The position numbers were made by a program. A DNA stretch of 7,526 nucleotides from a bacterium. Lineage in GTDB: Bacteria; Sysuimicrobiota; Sysuimicrobiia; Sysuimicrobiales; Humicultoraceae. Below are positions 1-6,000 of this stretch, one piece after another (positions within the stretch are counted from its first letter, which is position 1; every line of letters starts with the position of its first letter). The DNA lies in the NCBI GenBank assembly GCA_041497675.1, contig JBGQGY010000149.1, positions 1 to 7,526 of the forward strand, read 5' to 3'.

Positions 1-3000
1 TCATCAAACGGCCATCAGCTTCGACCGTAGCACGAACAGCCCGATGGTGTGCGTGACGATCGCACCGAGAGTTGCCGCGCCAAACGCCGGGGCCAGACCC
101 CACGAGAACAGAGTCCCGGACAGGATCGCGAAGAACAGCGCAAACGAAAACAATCCTATCATGACCCCTCGAAGCAGCCGGGTCGCCGCCGAAGCGCCTT
201 CGAATTGATGCGTGAATGCGGCCAGCACCGTCGCATAGACGGGAAACGGCGACAGCAGCCCGCTCAACCGCGGCCCCAACGACGCCGCCGTACCAGTGAT
301 CAACAGTACGATCGCGAGCGCCGCCACCATCCGCAGCGGGATTTCCCACCAGGGCGATGGACGCCGAACTTCCGCGGGCCCCCCCTCAGGCAGCACTACC
401 ACGACGGCGGCAAGCACCGCGAGGGTCCCAACGAACGCACCACCGAGCGACACCATGAAGCCGTTGAGCACGGACGTGACCACCAGAAACGACGCCCACC
501 CGACCAGCATGCTCGCCGTCCAGCCCCGACGCTTGGCCGTGACGCTGTAGGCCATGCAGAACCCCGCGACAGCGACCAGCCCCATGAGCGTGCCCTGGGC
601 GGCGTTCGACGCAAAGACGGTCCCTTGTTCCAACGCAAGGAACAGTGCGACCGGCCCCGACGTCCACGGGAGACCTGCGAGCCACCCGCCCACGGCCGGG
701 CCCCACCGCCGGCCCGCAAGGCTCAACACCCAGATCAGCACCGGGACAAGGATGAGTTTGAAGAGCAGCATCGTCTACAGGATAGTCGCTCGGCGACCGC
801 GTAACCAATCCTCCGCGTACCAATCCCGCCGGCGGAGGCGACCGTGGCGCTGCATCCCGAGGCGAAGGCCTTTCTCGATCAACGTGAGGCGATGGGCGTC
901 AAGTCCGCCACCGAACTGTCGGTTGAGGCGGCGCGCGAGCAGGCGGTGCGTGTTGCGCTTGCGGCGGGCCCCGGCGAACGCGTGGCCCACGTCGAAGACC
1001 GCTCCACACCGGGTCCGCACGGTCCGATCCCAATCCGTATCTACAGACCCGACGGCACGGGTCCCTTCCCCGTGCTCGTCTATTTCCACGGCGGCGGGTG
1101 GGTAGTAGGCAATCTCGAGACCGCCGATGTCTTTTGCCGGGCGATGACCTCCGGCACCGGCCATGTCGTGGTGTCCGTGAACTACCGTCACGCGCCTGAG
1201 CACAAGTTCCCGATCGCCGCCGACGACTCGTTTGCGGCGACACAGTGGGTTGCCACCCACGCGGCGACGTTCCACGGCGACGCCGCGCGCCTGATCGTCA
1301 GCGGGACGAGTGCGGGCGGCAACCTGGCCGCGGTCGTCGGCTTGATGGCGCGGGACCGCGGCGGCCCCGCGCTCATGTCTCAACTGTTGATCGTTCCGGT
1401 GATCGACTACAACTTCGAGACGTCATCATATCGCAAGAATGCCGACGGGTACGGCCTGACGGCCGACGCAATGCGCTGGTATTGGAAACAATATCTCCGC
1501 GGCGATGATGATGGCCGTCACCCCTACGCGTCACCGTTGCGCGCGCAGAGCCTGCGCGGTCTCCCGCCGGCGCTGGTCGTGACGGCGGAATTCGATCCGC
1601 TGCACGATGAAGGGGAGGCCTACGCGACGCGGCTGCGCGCCGAAGGCGTGCCCACGACCCTGTGGCGCCGCGAGGGGATGATCCACGGCTTTCTCGGTCC
1701 ACAGGCGAACGCGGAGATTGCGCGGGCCCTTAGGGAACAACCCCTATGGGCGCGGGATCGATCGGCGACCTGATTGGCACACGTGGTCCGAGCCCCTATC
1801 CTGGACGGGTGAACGCATCCATGCAGAACTCCCGACGTCAGGTCGCCGTCCTCTGCGTAATCGTCGCACTCTGCGCCGTCGCCGCAGGATGCTCGATGAA
1901 TCGCGTGGGACAGCCTGCGCCCGTCCCGGTCGCGAGCCCCGCCCCCCAGGCAGTCGCACCCACCCCACCCGCTGAACCCAACGTCTACGGCGCGCTGATG
2001 ACCGACAAGCTCGACCCTCGTCTGGCCGGGATCACGCCGCGGGTCTACGTGCCAAACGCGGGCTCGGGCACAGTCGATGTGATCGACCCCACGACCTACA
2101 AGATCGTCGACCACTTCAAGGTCGACAAGATCCCGCACCACATCACGCCGTCGTGGGACATGACGCGTCTGTACGTCAACAACACCGAATCGAACACGCT
2201 GACGGAGATCGACCCGAGAAGCGGCAAGCCCACCCGAACCATCCCGGTCGAAGACCCCTACAACCTCTACTACACGGCCGACGGCTCGAAGGCCATCGTC
2301 GTGGCCGAACGATTCCTGCGTCTGGACTTCAGGGATCCCCGCACGTGGGAACTCATCCGCAGCGTCCCGATCCCGTATCCGGGCGTCGACCACCTCGACT
2401 TCTCTGCGGATGGTCGCTTCCTGGTCGCCAGCACCGAGTATTCGGGGTACGTGGCCAAAGTCGATGTCGTCGAGATGGAACTCACAGGCCAGACAAAGGT
2501 GGGTGGTCTGCCCATCGACGTACGGCTGTCGCCCGACGGATCGGTCTTCTACGTGGCGAACCAGGGCCGCCACGGCGTCTCGGTGCTCGACGCGACCACG
2601 CTTCGCGAGATCGACTTCTTGCCCACGGGCAAAGGCGCCCACGGTTTCCACATCAGCCGGGATACGAAGTCGATGTACGTCAGCAACCGGCTGGAAGGCA
2701 CCATCTCGGTGATCGACACGGCCACGCGCAGCGTCCGCGCGACCTGGCGTATCGGCGGCAGCCCAGACATGATGCAGGTCTCACCCGACGGGCGGCAGTT
2801 GTGGGTCTCGAATCGGTTCCACAGCAGCGTCACAGTTGTTGACACCAGCACGGGTGACGTCGTGAAGAGGATCAAGGTCGGCAACAACCCGCACGGTCTC
2901 ACGTACTTCCCTCAACCGGGCAGGTTCAGCCTCGGGCACAACGGCGTGTATCGCTAACCGTTCAGCGGGCTGATCCGCCGCCTGACGTCAACTCCAGCCA

Positions 3001-6000
3001 CGCCTGCCAGCCGCCTTCCAACGCCCGGACGTTTCGAAACCCCCGGTGTCGGAGTTCCCGCGCCACACGGGCGCTGGTGGCTTCGTGTGTTCAGGCGCAG
3101 TACAGCACGATCGGCCCCGCGGGAGCCAGCTCCGCGACGCGTGCTGCGGCTTCGTCCGGCGCAAGGTGGACTGCCGTCGGAATGCGCCTCGGATCGCGGT
3201 CGAGGTCGCCCGGCTTGCGGACATCCACCACCAGGACCGGTTCTTGGCGTTCCAGCATCGCAGCCAGCTCGCGGACGGAGAGACGCGGGATCTCGTCCGC
3301 CTCGCGCCCGGGCACCAGCTCCACGTCGGGAGCGCGTGAGGCCCAGGCCACCAGCGGCGTTCCGGTCACACCGTGCAGCACCACCGATACCAGCACGACG
3401 ATCCCGGTCACAGCAAAGACCTGCGGGCCGCCCGCAGCACCGGACACCAGCACCAGCAGAGCCAGCAGGATGGAGTTCAGCCCGCGTGGACCGTGCCAGG
3501 CGGCAAACAACTTGTCCTGGATCGGGATGCGAAACCGGCTCAGGACGAGCATCAACACCACCGGCCGGCACACGAACAGCACGACCGCTGTAAACGCCAC
3601 AGTCCGCCAGTCGACCGCGGCCAGCGCGGGTCGGACCAGCGACGAGCCGAAGATCACGAACGTCAGCAACATCAGCAGTTCGGCGGTTGTCTCACCGTAT
3701 TCGAGGAAGCACTCGCAGAGATCGAGATCGCTGATCGCGATCGTCAGTCCCGCGACGAAGGCCGCCAGCAGACCGCTGGCGCCCAGCGCGTCGGCGGTCG
3801 CGTAGGCGATGAACGCCACGCCAAGCGAGTACAGCGACTGGTAGTCACGGCGCACGCCGATGCGCCGATCGACCCAGGTCAGACCCCGCATGCCCACCCA
3901 GGCGACCGCGACGCCGACTAGCGGACTCAGCACAAACACCGGAAGCGCGAACCCAACCCAGCTGGTCGCTGAGTGCAGGCGACCGCCCGCGACGGCAATG
4001 AGAATCAGGATCGCGGGCAGCGCCACCGCGTCGTTCATGCCGGACTCGACAGAGAGAATCTGCCTGACGGCCTGTGGGGTGCGCCGATCGCGCAAGACGT
4101 CGCGCAGCAACACCGGATCGGTCGACGCCAGAACGGCCCCCAACAGCAGCGAGGGGATGATCTCGAAGCTCAGAAGCCATCGGGCCGTTGCCGCGATGCT
4201 GAGGGCTGTCAGAATCGTGCCGGGTCCCAAGACGGCGATCGACGCAGGCCAGTCCTGCTTGAGCTGCTCGGTCTGCATCTTCAGCGCGTCCGTAAAGAGC
4301 GTGAGCGTCAAGGTGAGGATGCCGATCAAGACCACTTGTTCTGAATCCACAGGGAGCCGCATCAGACCCGTCTGGCCGAGCGCGAGCCCGATCGCCACAA
4401 AGAAGATCGCGCTGGAGAAGGGCCCGCGCTCCATGGCGCGTGACAGCAGCGCAGAGAGCACGATCACCAGGCCAACGATGCCGAGCATGACCGTCAACGC
4501 CGTCCTCCTGAGACCATCCTCGGGGACCTGCTGTTTCTCGCCTGCGGAGTGCTTCCCCTCTGAAAAACACCGCGAGGGGCGGGGCGATGTTAAGAATTCG
4601 TGAATGCTAGCGGGCCAGCAGCGACTTGATGGTGGCGATCAGCTCGTCTTCCGTGTTTGGGCCGTGCCTCGCGAACCGCAGGTTGCCGTCCTTGGCGACC
4701 ACGGCCCAGTACGGCTGATAGGAGAATCCGTATGCCTTGGCAATCCTTCCATCACCGTCCCACCCGTTGGGAAACGTGAGCTTGTGCCGGTCCACAAAGG
4801 CCTTGCTCTTGTCGCGCGAATCCAACAGGCCGATGCCGACAAATTCCACACCCTTACCCTTCCAGTCCCGGTACGCACGCTCCCACACGGGGGCGTCGGC
4901 GTTGCAGGTAGGTCACCACTGTGTCCAGAATAGCAGGACTACCGCCGCGCCTTTTAGATCAGCCAGGGTCAGGGTTTTACCAGTGAACAATTCGAGGGTG
5001 AAGGGCGAAGCAAGGCCGCCCGGACCGCCGAGCGCCACAGGGGCGAGGATGATTCCGGTGCATAGCGCGACACACACCACGAGCACAATCTTCCGGCGGA
5101 TGTCCCAAGACATTGGCATCCCTCCTGCTAAGTAGTATCCACCCCGCGGAGTAACGAAAGTATAAAGATAGAAACCAGGAGGGGTTTGAATGACCGACAT
5201 GCGGCAGTACGTCGTCGAAGAGTGGGCCGAAGATTACCACGCGGGACGTCTGGACCGGCGTGAATTCCTCCGCCGCATGACGATCATGGCCGGTGGCGCC
5301 GCGTTGGCGATTCCGCTGCTCTCTGCGCTGGGGCTCGCGGCTACTCCGGCGGAGTTGGACGCAGCGGCGGCGGCATCCCCGGCGATGGTCGCCGCGGCCG
5401 CTCCGGGAGTGACCGTACCGCCGGACGATCCGTCACTGACCGCCGGGATGATCACGTTCCCCATGGGGTCGGTTCAGGTGATCGCATACCTCGCGCAGCC
5501 CAGGGCCGTCGGACCACACCCTGCGGTGCTGGTCATCCACGAAAATCGCGGTCTGCTCGAGCACTTCAAAGATATCTCACGGCGGTTCGCTAAGGCCGGT
5601 TTCGTCGGCATCGCCGTCGATCTGGTCTCTCAGGAGGGCGGCACGGAGCGGTTTTCTGACTCAGCGCAGGTATCGTCGATCCTGGCGCAGGCTCCGCCGG
5701 AGCGACACGTCGAGACCATGAGCGCGGCCGTGCGACACCTCCAGGGATTGCCGAGCGTCCGGCGCGACCGTGTCGGTGCGATGGGTTTCTGCTTCGGCGG
5801 CGGGATGGTGTGGCGGCTGGCTACCGCCAACGCTGATCTGAGGGCCGCAGCGCCGTTCTATGGTTCGAATCCGCCGATGGCCGATGTCGCGAAGATCAAG
5901 GCGTCGATCCTGGCCGTCTATGGCGAGCTCGACACTCGCCTCAACGCCGGGATTCCGGCGATCCGCGAGGCGCTGCAGCGGGCCAACGTTGTCAGCGACT

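Follow-up and report, generated by a model that had tools for sequence, protein, structure and literature searches.

The DNA analysed here (the window, 7,526 nt) is an entire contig, G000:C149, and window and contig coordinates are therefore equal. Its minus strand carries an annotated ORF (3091..4497) of 468 aa, which starts with TTG and ends at the TGA at 3093..3091. The survey's finding held that this gene runs past the TGA for 42 codons to give a protein of 511 aa. Reading the frame on to the next stop, TGA 2964..2962, bears this out: after readthrough of the first TGA the protein continues as ...IVLYCAU THEATSARVARELRHRGFRNVRALEGGWQAWLELTSGGGSAR. The starts of the orthologues (MT.ILG...) coincide with the gene start, and the stop of a convergent gene (1746..2957) lies 4 nt from the extended stop of the antiporter gene. 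From the sequence comparisons presented below, the product is very likely a 511-aa selenoprotein, in which a 13-helix NhaP/CPA1 antiporter is followed by a cytoplasmic C-terminal rhodanese domain with the motif Cys467-Ala-Sec469 (Table 1).

Table 1. Features of the antiporter-rhodanese gene in window coordinates.
Feature	Position	Strand	Remarks
Whole gene (predicted)	2962..4497	-	511 codons; TTG 4497..4495; predicted Sec codon 3093..3091; predicted true stop TGA 2964..2962
CPA1/NhaP antiporter domain, residues 14-385	3343..4458	-	Pfam PF00999 Na_H_Exchanger, 165.8 bits (gathering 26.2)
Second Cys pair C261-E-C263	3709..3717	-	motif LC[DE]CFLEYGETTAE, start of TM10
Rhodanese domain, residues 399-502	2992..3303	-	complete only with TGA readthrough
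C467-A468-U469 (TGC GCC TGA)	3091..3099	-	UGA 3093..3091 is the predicted Sec codon
Putative bacterial SECIS hairpin, core	3060..3074	-	stem GCGCC/GGCGC, loop CGUGU, 16 nt after UGA
Weaker extension of the hairpin	3057..3077	-	

The membrane part has the features of a conventional exchanger. An AF2 model (pLDDT 86, pTM 0.74) contains 13 helices, two of which are broken, at T126-D127 and at G336-P-R338-G. In family alignments the cation-site residues T126-D127, E151, N155-D156, R311 and R338 are invariant, and we take T126-D127 and N155-D156 to be the TD/ND cation-site motifs, with roles as in PaNhaP/MjNhaP1. By its invariant cation-site residues, the membrane part resembles an ordinary Na+(K+)/H+ exchanger. 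The best Foldseek matches are CPA antiporters with regulatory C-terminal domains. The closest solved membrane domain, also of 13 helices, is that of the archaeal Na+/H+ antiporters PaNhaP/MjNhaP1 (PDB 4cz8, 4cza, 4czb), PaNhaP being matched with a phmmer E of 3e-13, a Foldseek E of 2e-11 and a TM-score of 0.71 on the target. Potassium/proton antiporter models match as the survey had noted, but with scores below their cut-offs, and membership in a named NCBIfam equivalog was rejected (NF003716, 184.8 versus 355 bits; TIGR00831 (a_cpa1), 81.3 versus 279.6 bits).

The second Cys pair is specific to the fusion family. C261 is invariant and C263 at least 90% conserved among 36 fusions, and neither of them varies in 46 Cys-form fusions, whereas the motif was found neither in PaNhaP nor in two CPA paralogues without a rhodanese; PaNhaP/MjNhaP1 lack both a C-terminal domain and a C-x-C at this position. 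If the N terminus is assumed to lie outside, the inner-side loops carry 16 K+R and the outer loops 3 (counted on the model helices), and C261-x-C263 appears to face the cytoplasm.

The rhodanese domain is matched by Pfam PF00581 (residues 408-502, 51.9 bits versus a gathering score of 22.2) and by the PDB rhodanese 6mxv (E 1.8e-17), and its part of the AF2 model shows the beta/alpha pattern with a pLDDT of 81-92. Its best NCBIfam match is NF041203, with which it shares the rhodanese fold and the C-x-U motif (LYCAU in the window). The survey had aligned residues 399-502 with positions 16-118 of 126 of this model at 90.4 bits. The match as such stands, and a second scoring of the domain gave 86.3 bits, but the score is below the curated cut-off of 115, so that the domain is the nearest relative of this equivalog and not a member. 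NF041203 models a stand-alone protein and has about 126 positions, whereas the window domain forms the C-terminal tail of a 13-TM antiporter of 511 residues. A search with the rhodanese domain alone yielded no close stand-alone relative; its two matches were both fusion fragments. The canonical catalytic position is U469 by gapless alignment to 6mxv, and C467, with a loop two residues longer, by alignment to 5ve3, 1qxn and three rhodaneses of the genome.

All gene callers end the protein at the TGA at 3093..3091, and an open stretch of 42 codons is nothing unusual where the DNA is GC-rich. Therefore one could regard this TGA as a real stop, which would leave a 468-aa antiporter with a non-functional rhodanese stub, the 42 codons being a decaying remnant. 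Comparison of related loci makes this hardly credible. Among the 80 best related loci in genome contigs, which come from many phyla, the codon for residue 469 is TGA in 64 and TGC/TGT in 16, and C467 is invariant in the fusion alignments. Apart from two loci at contig ends, the tail after the UGA is open in all 64 TGA loci over 40-63 codons, where it keeps the motif E..TSAR...GG[WYF].AW and completes the rhodanese fold. It is kept as protein: the entropies of the first, second and third codon positions over tail codons +11..+29 are 1.10, 1.28 and 1.61, the third position being the most variable. Closer to the window, all six family orthologues (three genera, 71-96% identity) have one TGA at the same place, just as the survey had stated. 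Across the 94 phylum genomes examined there are nine loci in eight other genomes, all with YCAU. Other members of the fusion family have [YSFW]C[ATN]U where the window has LYCAU. An in-frame UGA with the frame conserved beyond it is found at all nine phylum loci and at 64/80 of the wider loci. It is the 64 further TGA loci together with the Cys-aligned homologues, rather than the open frame alone, that decide in favour of Sec.

A remnant would also not retain a hairpin at a fixed distance at synonymous sites. The hairpin 16 nt past the UGA, as claimed in the survey, is present: a near-invariant GCGCC-CGUGN-GGCGC lies at exactly this distance in 65/65 TGA forms (the 64 related loci and the window), with no indel in the spacing in any of these sequences. 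Its 5-bp GC stem has all five core pairs formed in 63 of the 65 Sec forms and four of five in the remaining two, and the loop, which reads CGUGN in all 65, lies 21 nt past the UGA. The hairpin fits the bSECISearch criteria in stem, loop and distance, these reportedly being a short stem and an apical loop with G/U that is 16-37 nt away from the UGA.

In the alignment 78.2% of the cells are paired, as against 25-48% when the partner is slid, and the covariation score of 0.084 (shuffled 0.056) was reached by 1 of 500 shuffles. Because the core stem is almost invariant, this covariation consists of two compensatory core cells, both U-A pairs, and the variable lower pair 18-36 (CG in 24, GC in 10 sequences). 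The three lower pairs are formed in just 27-57% of the sequences, and the window itself has A19 opposite G35. Third-position entropy over the hairpin is 0.00-0.66 bit in Sec forms versus 0.81-1.85 in Cys forms, and a synonymous-site footprint is found in the Sec forms only; among the 16 Cys forms three retain five of five core pairs and six retain four. Of the two copies of the 15-nt core in the 3.97-Mb genome, only the one at the antiporter gene lies behind a TGA. In favour of a real stop it can be said that the local fold energy is unexceptional: the 67 nt after the UGA fold with an MFE no better than that of shuffles (z -0.51). An Rfam search downstream of the UGA matched no family.

The genome was said in the survey to possess selA, selB, selD and tRNA-Sec, and this is correct: the profile scores of selB (361.5 bits), selA (536.6 bits) and selD (393.6 bits) are all above the curated cut-offs, and a tRNA-Sec with the anticodon UCA lies at C24:29512-29607. 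The selD gene has itself one in-frame TGA (Sec-type), followed by a hairpin of 7 bp whose loop is likewise CGUGU. These findings speak against a readthrough of the UGA with another residue, either Cys by a tRNA-Sec-like tRNA or Trp/Cys by near-cognate suppression, which would give a full-length protein without Se. Cys-recoding tRNA-Sec-like tRNAs have been reported in some bacteria, and Cys is acceptable at the site since 16 Cys forms exist, but for the window protein we regard such a readthrough as very improbable. The genetic code is not reassigned, since TGA also terminates the antiporter gene itself.

Across the wider set selB scores above the cut-off in 22/28 Sec-form genomes versus 6/16 Cys-form genomes (Fisher p 0.0099, kin not independent). 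No selB was found in five of the 28 Sec-form genomes tested, and in a sixth it is cut by the contig end. Within the phylum selB is absent in two of the eight carrier genomes (84% and 59% complete), and it is common there regardless of the fusion (72/94 genomes). Together, the Sec/Cys pairing, the coding-type conservation of the tail, the hairpin at fixed distance, the Sec machinery and the selB enrichment support the survey's claim that the TGA is a selenocysteine codon. We conclude that the UGA at 3093..3091 almost certainly encodes Sec, and the real protein would hence have a complete Se-containing, sensor-like domain.

Concerning the database copies, 30 of the 31 listed matches with 71-100% identity end at ...CA, the other being a fragment that ends earlier. 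Among the 120 listed homologues 66 end exactly at the Sec codon and 52 are full-length with Cys in its place. Therefore the statement that every database copy is cut off at the Sec codon is valid for the Sec forms but not for the Cys forms. Likewise, the orthologues in three genera describe the family correctly but do not mark the limit of the Sec form, which occurs in at least seven phyla according to the record labels (Chloroflexota, Thermomicrobiota, Actinomycetota, Acidobacteriota, Verrucomicrobiota, Binatota and 'delta proteobacterium'). In a tree of 75 proteins, calculated with the site masked, the Sec/Cys label needs at least seven changes and the Cys forms are nested in Sec clades. In the sampled family Sec was probably the ancestral state, and at least seven replacements by Cys would have followed.

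The Cys-type NhaP-rhodanese fusions (507-567 aa, 41-48% identity) have the same architecture as the window protein and conserve both C-x-C motifs, and for some of them the source gives the name 'NhaP-type Na+/H+ or K+/H+ antiporter/rhodanese-related sulfurtransferase'. They differ in that Cys replaces Sec, the hairpin is eroded, variation at synonymous sites is unconstrained and the proteins are annotated at full length. A working analogy is offered by KefC (PDB 8by2, 8bxg), a glutathione-gated K+/H+ exchanger of the CPA fold whose cytoplasmic C-terminal domain links thiol chemistry to gating. However, KefC belongs to CPA2, binds glutathione adducts with a KTN/RCK domain and has neither a rhodanese nor Sec, and its fold matches the window protein less well (E 1e-8, rmsd about 12 A). 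TsoB (NF045694; Haft and Tolstoy 2025), a rhodanese/DsbD fusion-like protein, resembles the window protein in carrying a Sec-rhodanese on a membrane protein, but has two Sec in a UxxxxU motif, and its membrane partner is an electron transporter of the DsbD type instead of an ion antiporter, according to a 2026 review (PMC13188914). The review also gives the CxU type as 'form 3' of the rhodanese-like selenoproteins (NF041203 rhodanese_LYCAU), and its list of Sec-linked transport proteins names no cation/proton antiporter. Our literature search found no paper on a fusion of a Sec-rhodanese with an NhaP antiporter.

Judging from these comparisons, the rhodanese domain probably serves in the cytoplasm as a sensor of redox state or sulfane sulfur and gates the antiporter. 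In other CPA antiporters (KefC, SOS1, NHE, SLC9C1) the C-terminal cytoplasmic domains are regulators. Alternatively, Sec could be inserted and the rhodanese act as a catalyst of S/Se transfer at the membrane, for example in selenide/persulfide trafficking or detoxification, with the antiporter supplying ion/pH coupling. Rhodaneses are sulfurtransferases, and in or after the loop there are two invariant residues, Glu472 and Arg477. On the other side, the CPA1 cation-site residues are invariant, so that the exchanger looks ordinary; no S or Se metabolism gene is a conserved neighbour at the 80 loci, where no conserved neighbour gene was found at all (the largest cluster covers 4/80 loci); and the solved CPA relatives, identified by fold matches, have C-terminal domains that we understand to be regulatory. 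A catalytic function therefore seems rather unlikely to us, and we see about an even chance that the role of the rhodanese is regulatory rather than catalytic.

For synthesis of the protein the comparisons support the following course. The ribosome would meet the UGA and, 16 nt downstream, the GC-rich hairpin GCGCC-CGUGU-GGCGC, which would act as a bacterial SECIS within the codons for S-A-R-V-A. SelB would bring Sec-tRNA(Sec), made by SelA and SelD, by way of this hairpin, and translation would go on for 42 codons and complete the rhodanese fold. By analogy, the Sec-rhodanese would then probably sense the redox state or sulfane sulfur/selenium, and would switch between the selenol/thiol and the selenenylsulfide or persulfide state and in this way gate Na+(K+)/H+ exchange. 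Its partner, and the route of gating, may be C261-x-C263 at the end of TM10 that faces the cytoplasm.

Taken as a whole, a more far-reaching proposal is doubtful. Under it, the protein would be a secondary ion transporter and a selenoprotein in one, the first of its kind, with the ancestral Sec-rhodanese as a built-in redox/persulfide/selenium sensor. The exchange would be gated by a selenenylsulfide relay that connects C467-x-U469 with C261-x-C263, the latter at the mouth of TM10 on the cytoplasmic side. Under Se scarcity translation would stop at the UGA, the resulting antiporter would lack a folded sensor, and Se supply would thereby set ion/pH homeostasis.

With the Sec reading, a membrane ion exchanger would be added to the list of selenoproteins, and a family spread across soil and subsurface phyla would turn out to be annotated about 45 residues too short. 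The compact and nearly invariant SECIS could be used as a search model in these phyla. One of the carriers is a cultured strain of Thermosporothrix hazakensis (locus L111), and the prediction can therefore be tested at the bench. Finally, the replacements on the tree provide a natural Sec/Cys series, in which it may be asked what selenium buys in a sensor domain.

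The annotated ORF of the antiporter gene on the minus strand starts with TTG at 4497 and ends at the TGA 3093..3091, which gives a protein of 468 aa (contig and window coordinates are identical, the window being all of contig C149). The survey's finding had been that the frame does not end there, and this is borne out: past this TGA the same frame runs on for 42 more codons (THEATSARVARELRHRGFRNVRALEGGWQAWLELTSGGGSAR) up to TGA 2964..2962, 511 aa in total, and 4 nt separate this extended stop from the stop of the convergent YncE-like gene. Pfam assigns residues 14-385 to Na_H_Exchanger and residues 408-502 to Rhodanese, and the rhodanese domain is whole only when the 42-codon extension is included. 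The C-terminal part had also been assigned to NF041203 (rhodanese_LYCAU), the NCBIfam model of the known small C-x-U rhodanese selenoproteins; the match of 90.4 bits over residues 399-502 was found again, but this score lies under the curated cut-off of 115.

Features of the window around the in-frame UGA of the antiporter gene
Feature	Position in the window	Strand	Remarks
Abhydrolase_3 esterase/lipase-type protein	844-1773	+	
YncE-like seven-bladed beta-propeller	1746-2957	+	121 bits; convergent to the antiporter gene
SECIS-type hairpin GCGCC-CGUGU-GGCGC	3074..3060	-	16 nt after UGA
Dienelactone hydrolase	5190-6125	+	
Amidase	6138-7526	+	cut off at the contig end

Studying the 34 genomes of the same family reveals orthologues in six genomes besides the window's own, which represent three genera and show 71-96% identity. 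All six have a single TGA at the position matching that of the window, exactly as the survey had reported. Order-wide, in 94 genomes which also form the phylum-level set and include G017 and G024, nine loci were found in eight other genomes, and all nine read YCAU followed by a conserved tail. Two of these loci are gene copies in one genome of a different family within the order (L030 on G043:C122 and L032 on G043:C285), 92% and 75% identical to the window's gene; the 92% copy lies on a 4.9-kb contig and may stem from contamination of the bin or from recent transfer.

The wider family was collected by a profile-guided scan with one genome per species, and the best 80 of at least 581 relatives were used. 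At the position of U469, 64 of these 80 have TGA (including locus L088 of genome G125, which is also part of the alignments A2 and A3, the tree and the selB tally) and 16 have TGC or TGT. G017, G024 and G125 only contribute to counts and alignments, and none of the conclusions depends on one of these genomes by itself. Nine of the TGA loci belong to the window's own phylum and 55 to other phyla, labelled in their records as Chloroflexota (several orders), Thermomicrobiota, Actinomycetota (Rubrobacter and others), Acidobacteriota, Verrucomicrobiota, Binatota and 'delta proteobacterium'; one carrier of the TGA form is a cultured strain of Thermosporothrix hazakensis (L111). This distribution is the classical pattern of a Sec/Cys pair. 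A sequencing error was rejected as the cause, since 64 independent assemblies carry the TGA. A reassigned genetic code was likewise rejected: TGA also terminates the gene, and the site aligns with Cys and not with Trp or Gly. The frame after the TGA stays open for 40-63 further codons in all TGA forms but two, which are cut by contig ends. In the tail codons +11 to +29, past the hairpin, the entropy is 1.10, 1.28 and 1.61 bits for the three codon positions, so that the third varies most. Two loci have in-frame stops further upstream, L081 (Sec form) 366 codons before the Sec codon and L053 (Cys form) 66 codons before the Cys codon; possible explanations are frameshifts, pseudogenes or further recoding.

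The survey had further stated that every database copy of the fusion is truncated at this site. Counted by end point, 66 of the 120 listed database homologues end exactly two residues past the conserved Cys (30 of them at 71-100% and 36 at 41-48% identity), while 52 continue with Cys at the Sec position; the remaining two are a protein with an aberrant tail and a fragment stopping earlier. The truncation is therefore confined to Sec forms, and for these the statement is right, but it does not extend to the Cys forms. There are many full-length Cys fusions, and the source records name some of them as antiporter/rhodanese fusions.

The hairpin, earlier judged by eye only, can now be placed on its pairing, its fixed spacing and synonymous constraint across 65 aligned TGA forms. 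No indel is found between UGA and hairpin, 63 of the 65 sequences form all five core pairs and two form four of them, and the loop has the consensus C-G-[U/G]-G-N with C25, G26 and G28 invariant. The core has changed little, but in the direction expected of a stem: C-G is replaced by a compensatory U-A twice, G-U wobbles occur five times, and there are two mismatches. Below the core lie three weak pairs, which form in 27-57% of the sequences (the window itself has A19 opposite G35); pair 18-36 is C-G in 24 sequences and G-C in 10. Overall 78.2% of the cells are paired, compared with 25-48% when the partner is slid, and the covariation score was matched by only one of 500 shuffles. The strongest signal of the hairpin in these alignments is the constraint on synonymous sites. 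At the third positions of codons +6 to +10 the entropy is 0.20, 0.00, 0.66, 0.00 and 0.20 bit in Sec forms and 0.81, 1.65, 1.70, 1.85 and 1.51 bit in Cys forms, and in flanking codons it is similar between the two. Within the hairpin of Sec forms one Ala codon is GCC without exception and the other almost always GCG. The 16 Cys forms retain five of five core pairs in three cases, four in six and fewer in seven. In one of them (L101:4450-4503) AGCGCCCGUGUCGCAC still follows the TGC codon; this looks like a decaying SECIS, in line with a recent Sec-to-Cys replacement.

An RNA fold of the region after the UGA, calculated for the single sequence, was no more stable than shuffles, and comparative analysis was used instead of such whole-region folding. 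An Rfam scan of window positions 2900-3200 gave no match at E values up to 10. Two copies of the 15-nt core exist in the 3.97-Mb genome; the one in the antiporter gene is the only one preceded by a TGA. A crude genome-wide scan for TGA, hairpin and open frame gave 74 matches, nearly all of them noise in this GC-rich genome, and the only interpretable ones are the antiporter gene and selD. Behind the Sec codon of selD, at a distance of 32 nt, stands a 7-bp hairpin that shares the CGUGU loop; SelB of this lineage may prefer this loop.

The Sec machinery claimed for this genome is complete in our searches, comprising tRNA-Sec, selA (536.6 bits), selB (361.5 bits) and selD (393.6 bits). The selD gene (C39:15041, outside the window) carries its own in-frame TGA and is itself a selenoprotein gene (context ...ACAG-U-ASKL...). 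A formate dehydrogenase with an internal stop of the Sec type was not found in this genome. Many genomes of the phylum have selB (72 of 94), and it lies above the cut-off in six of the eight other phylum carriers of the fusion, the two without it being 84% and 59% complete. For other phyla 44 genomes of unstated completeness were tallied, namely all 16 with the Cys form and 28 chosen from the 55 with the Sec form. Above the cut-off selB is present in 22 of the 28 Sec-form genomes, plus one in which it is cut by a contig end, and in six of the 16 Cys-form genomes (Fisher p 0.0099, related genomes not being independent). Taken as comparative evidence, these data establish SelB-dependent insertion of Sec, directed by the hairpin, as the predicted reading of the UGA 3093..3091.

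For the history of the site, a FastTree phylogeny of 75 proteins (60 Sec and 15 Cys rows) was calculated with the site masked; it excludes six of the 80 loci, which lack an end or a start. When the Sec/Cys state is placed on this tree at least seven changes of state are needed, and Cys forms are nested within Sec clades. A single origin of Sec followed by repeated Sec-to-Cys replacement would be the economical reading, because every Sec form has the same hairpin at the same distance; since the tree is unrooted, we infer this order of events only.

The protein was modelled with AF2 from 36 family members with C in place of U (mean pLDDT 86, pTM 0.74). The model contains 13 membrane helices, two of which are broken, at T126-D127 and at G336-P-R338-G; the helices were taken from this model, as a hydropathy-window prediction was too coarse. 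Residues 390-398 form a disordered linker to an alpha/beta domain, in which strand 463-466 leads into C467-A-U469 and helix 470-484. In structure the model comes closest to PaNhaP (E 2e-11, TM-score 0.71 on the target) and MjNhaP1, with SOS1, SLC9C1, NHE1/3 and KefC next. T126, D127, E151, N155, D156, R311 and R338 are invariant in the family; we take these to be the cation-site residues of electroneutral CPA1 exchangers, as in the work on PaNhaP and MjNhaP1. Counted on the AF2 helices with the N terminus outside, Lys and Arg number 16 in the inner and 3 in the outer loops, and the rhodanese domain should therefore, in this model, be cytoplasmic. A second Cys pair, C261-x-C263 in the motif LC[DE]CFLEYGETTAE, lies at the cytoplasmic start of TM10. 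In the 36 fusions C261 is invariant and C263 at least 90% conserved, and in 46 Cys-type fusions both are invariant, whereas PaNhaP and two CPA paralogues lacking a rhodanese domain are without this motif. With no more than three comparators, a tie between C261-x-C263 and the rhodanese domain can be taken as a lead only.

Clustering of 374 flanking ORFs from the 80 loci gave no conserved partner gene, the largest cluster covering four loci, and no sulfur or selenium genes as conserved neighbours. For the other genes of the window (hydrolases, propeller and amidase) no link to the antiporter is evident, and the propeller gene is not a conserved neighbour at the other loci. Its similarity to the 56-kDa selenium-binding protein family stays below threshold (24.4 bits, cut-off 34) and is probably generic to propellers. 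A search with the rhodanese domain alone found no stand-alone relatives but only two fragments of the same fusion.

In solved relatives among the CPA exchangers cytoplasmic C-terminal domains are regulators. Together with the intact cation site and the lack of any sulfur or selenium gene among conserved neighbours, this leads us to favour, by analogy, a sensor role for the rhodanese domain. The main functional rival, that this domain catalyses a sulfur- or selenium-transfer reaction, seems less likely to us. As to the catalytic loop, when the domain is aligned without gaps to the solved rhodanese 6mxv the catalytic Cys falls on U469, and U-T-H-E-A-T-S fits C-X4-[RT]-S; against 5ve3, 1qxn and three ordinary rhodaneses from the same genome it falls on C467, with a loop two residues longer. 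As a sensor, the domain would react through its C-x-U pair to oxidants or to sulfane sulfur or selenium and thereby alter exchanger activity, possibly via C261-x-C263. The nearest working analogy for such a fusion is the thiol-adduct gating of KefC.

A 2026 review (PMC13188914) names among transport-linked selenoproteins a mercuric transport protein, an E1-E2 ATPase, YeeE/YedE, Sao ABC components, a Cu/Zn efflux protein and the rhodanese/DsbD fusion-like TsoB, and it does not mention antiporter, NhaP or exchanger. These terms are likewise absent from a 2022 review (PMC9312934) and from the main text of the BSepDB paper, one supplement of which lacks 'rhodanese', 'antiporter' and 'NF041203'; BSepDB may hold the fusion genes under its rhodanese family, the family table possibly lying outside that supplement. 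The paper on the phylum (PMC11604079) contains neither 'seleno' nor 'antiporter' or 'rhodanese'. A full-text literature search, judged partly by title and abstract, gave nothing relevant joining selenocysteine/selenoprotein or rhodanese with NhaP-type antiporters. The C-x-U rhodanese selenoprotein domain type is thus the known part; no published description was found of its fusion to a CPA1 antiporter, which is widespread and systematically truncated in annotation. The fusion of a C-x-U rhodanese selenoprotein domain with a CPA1 antiporter is itself a real and well-supported finding.
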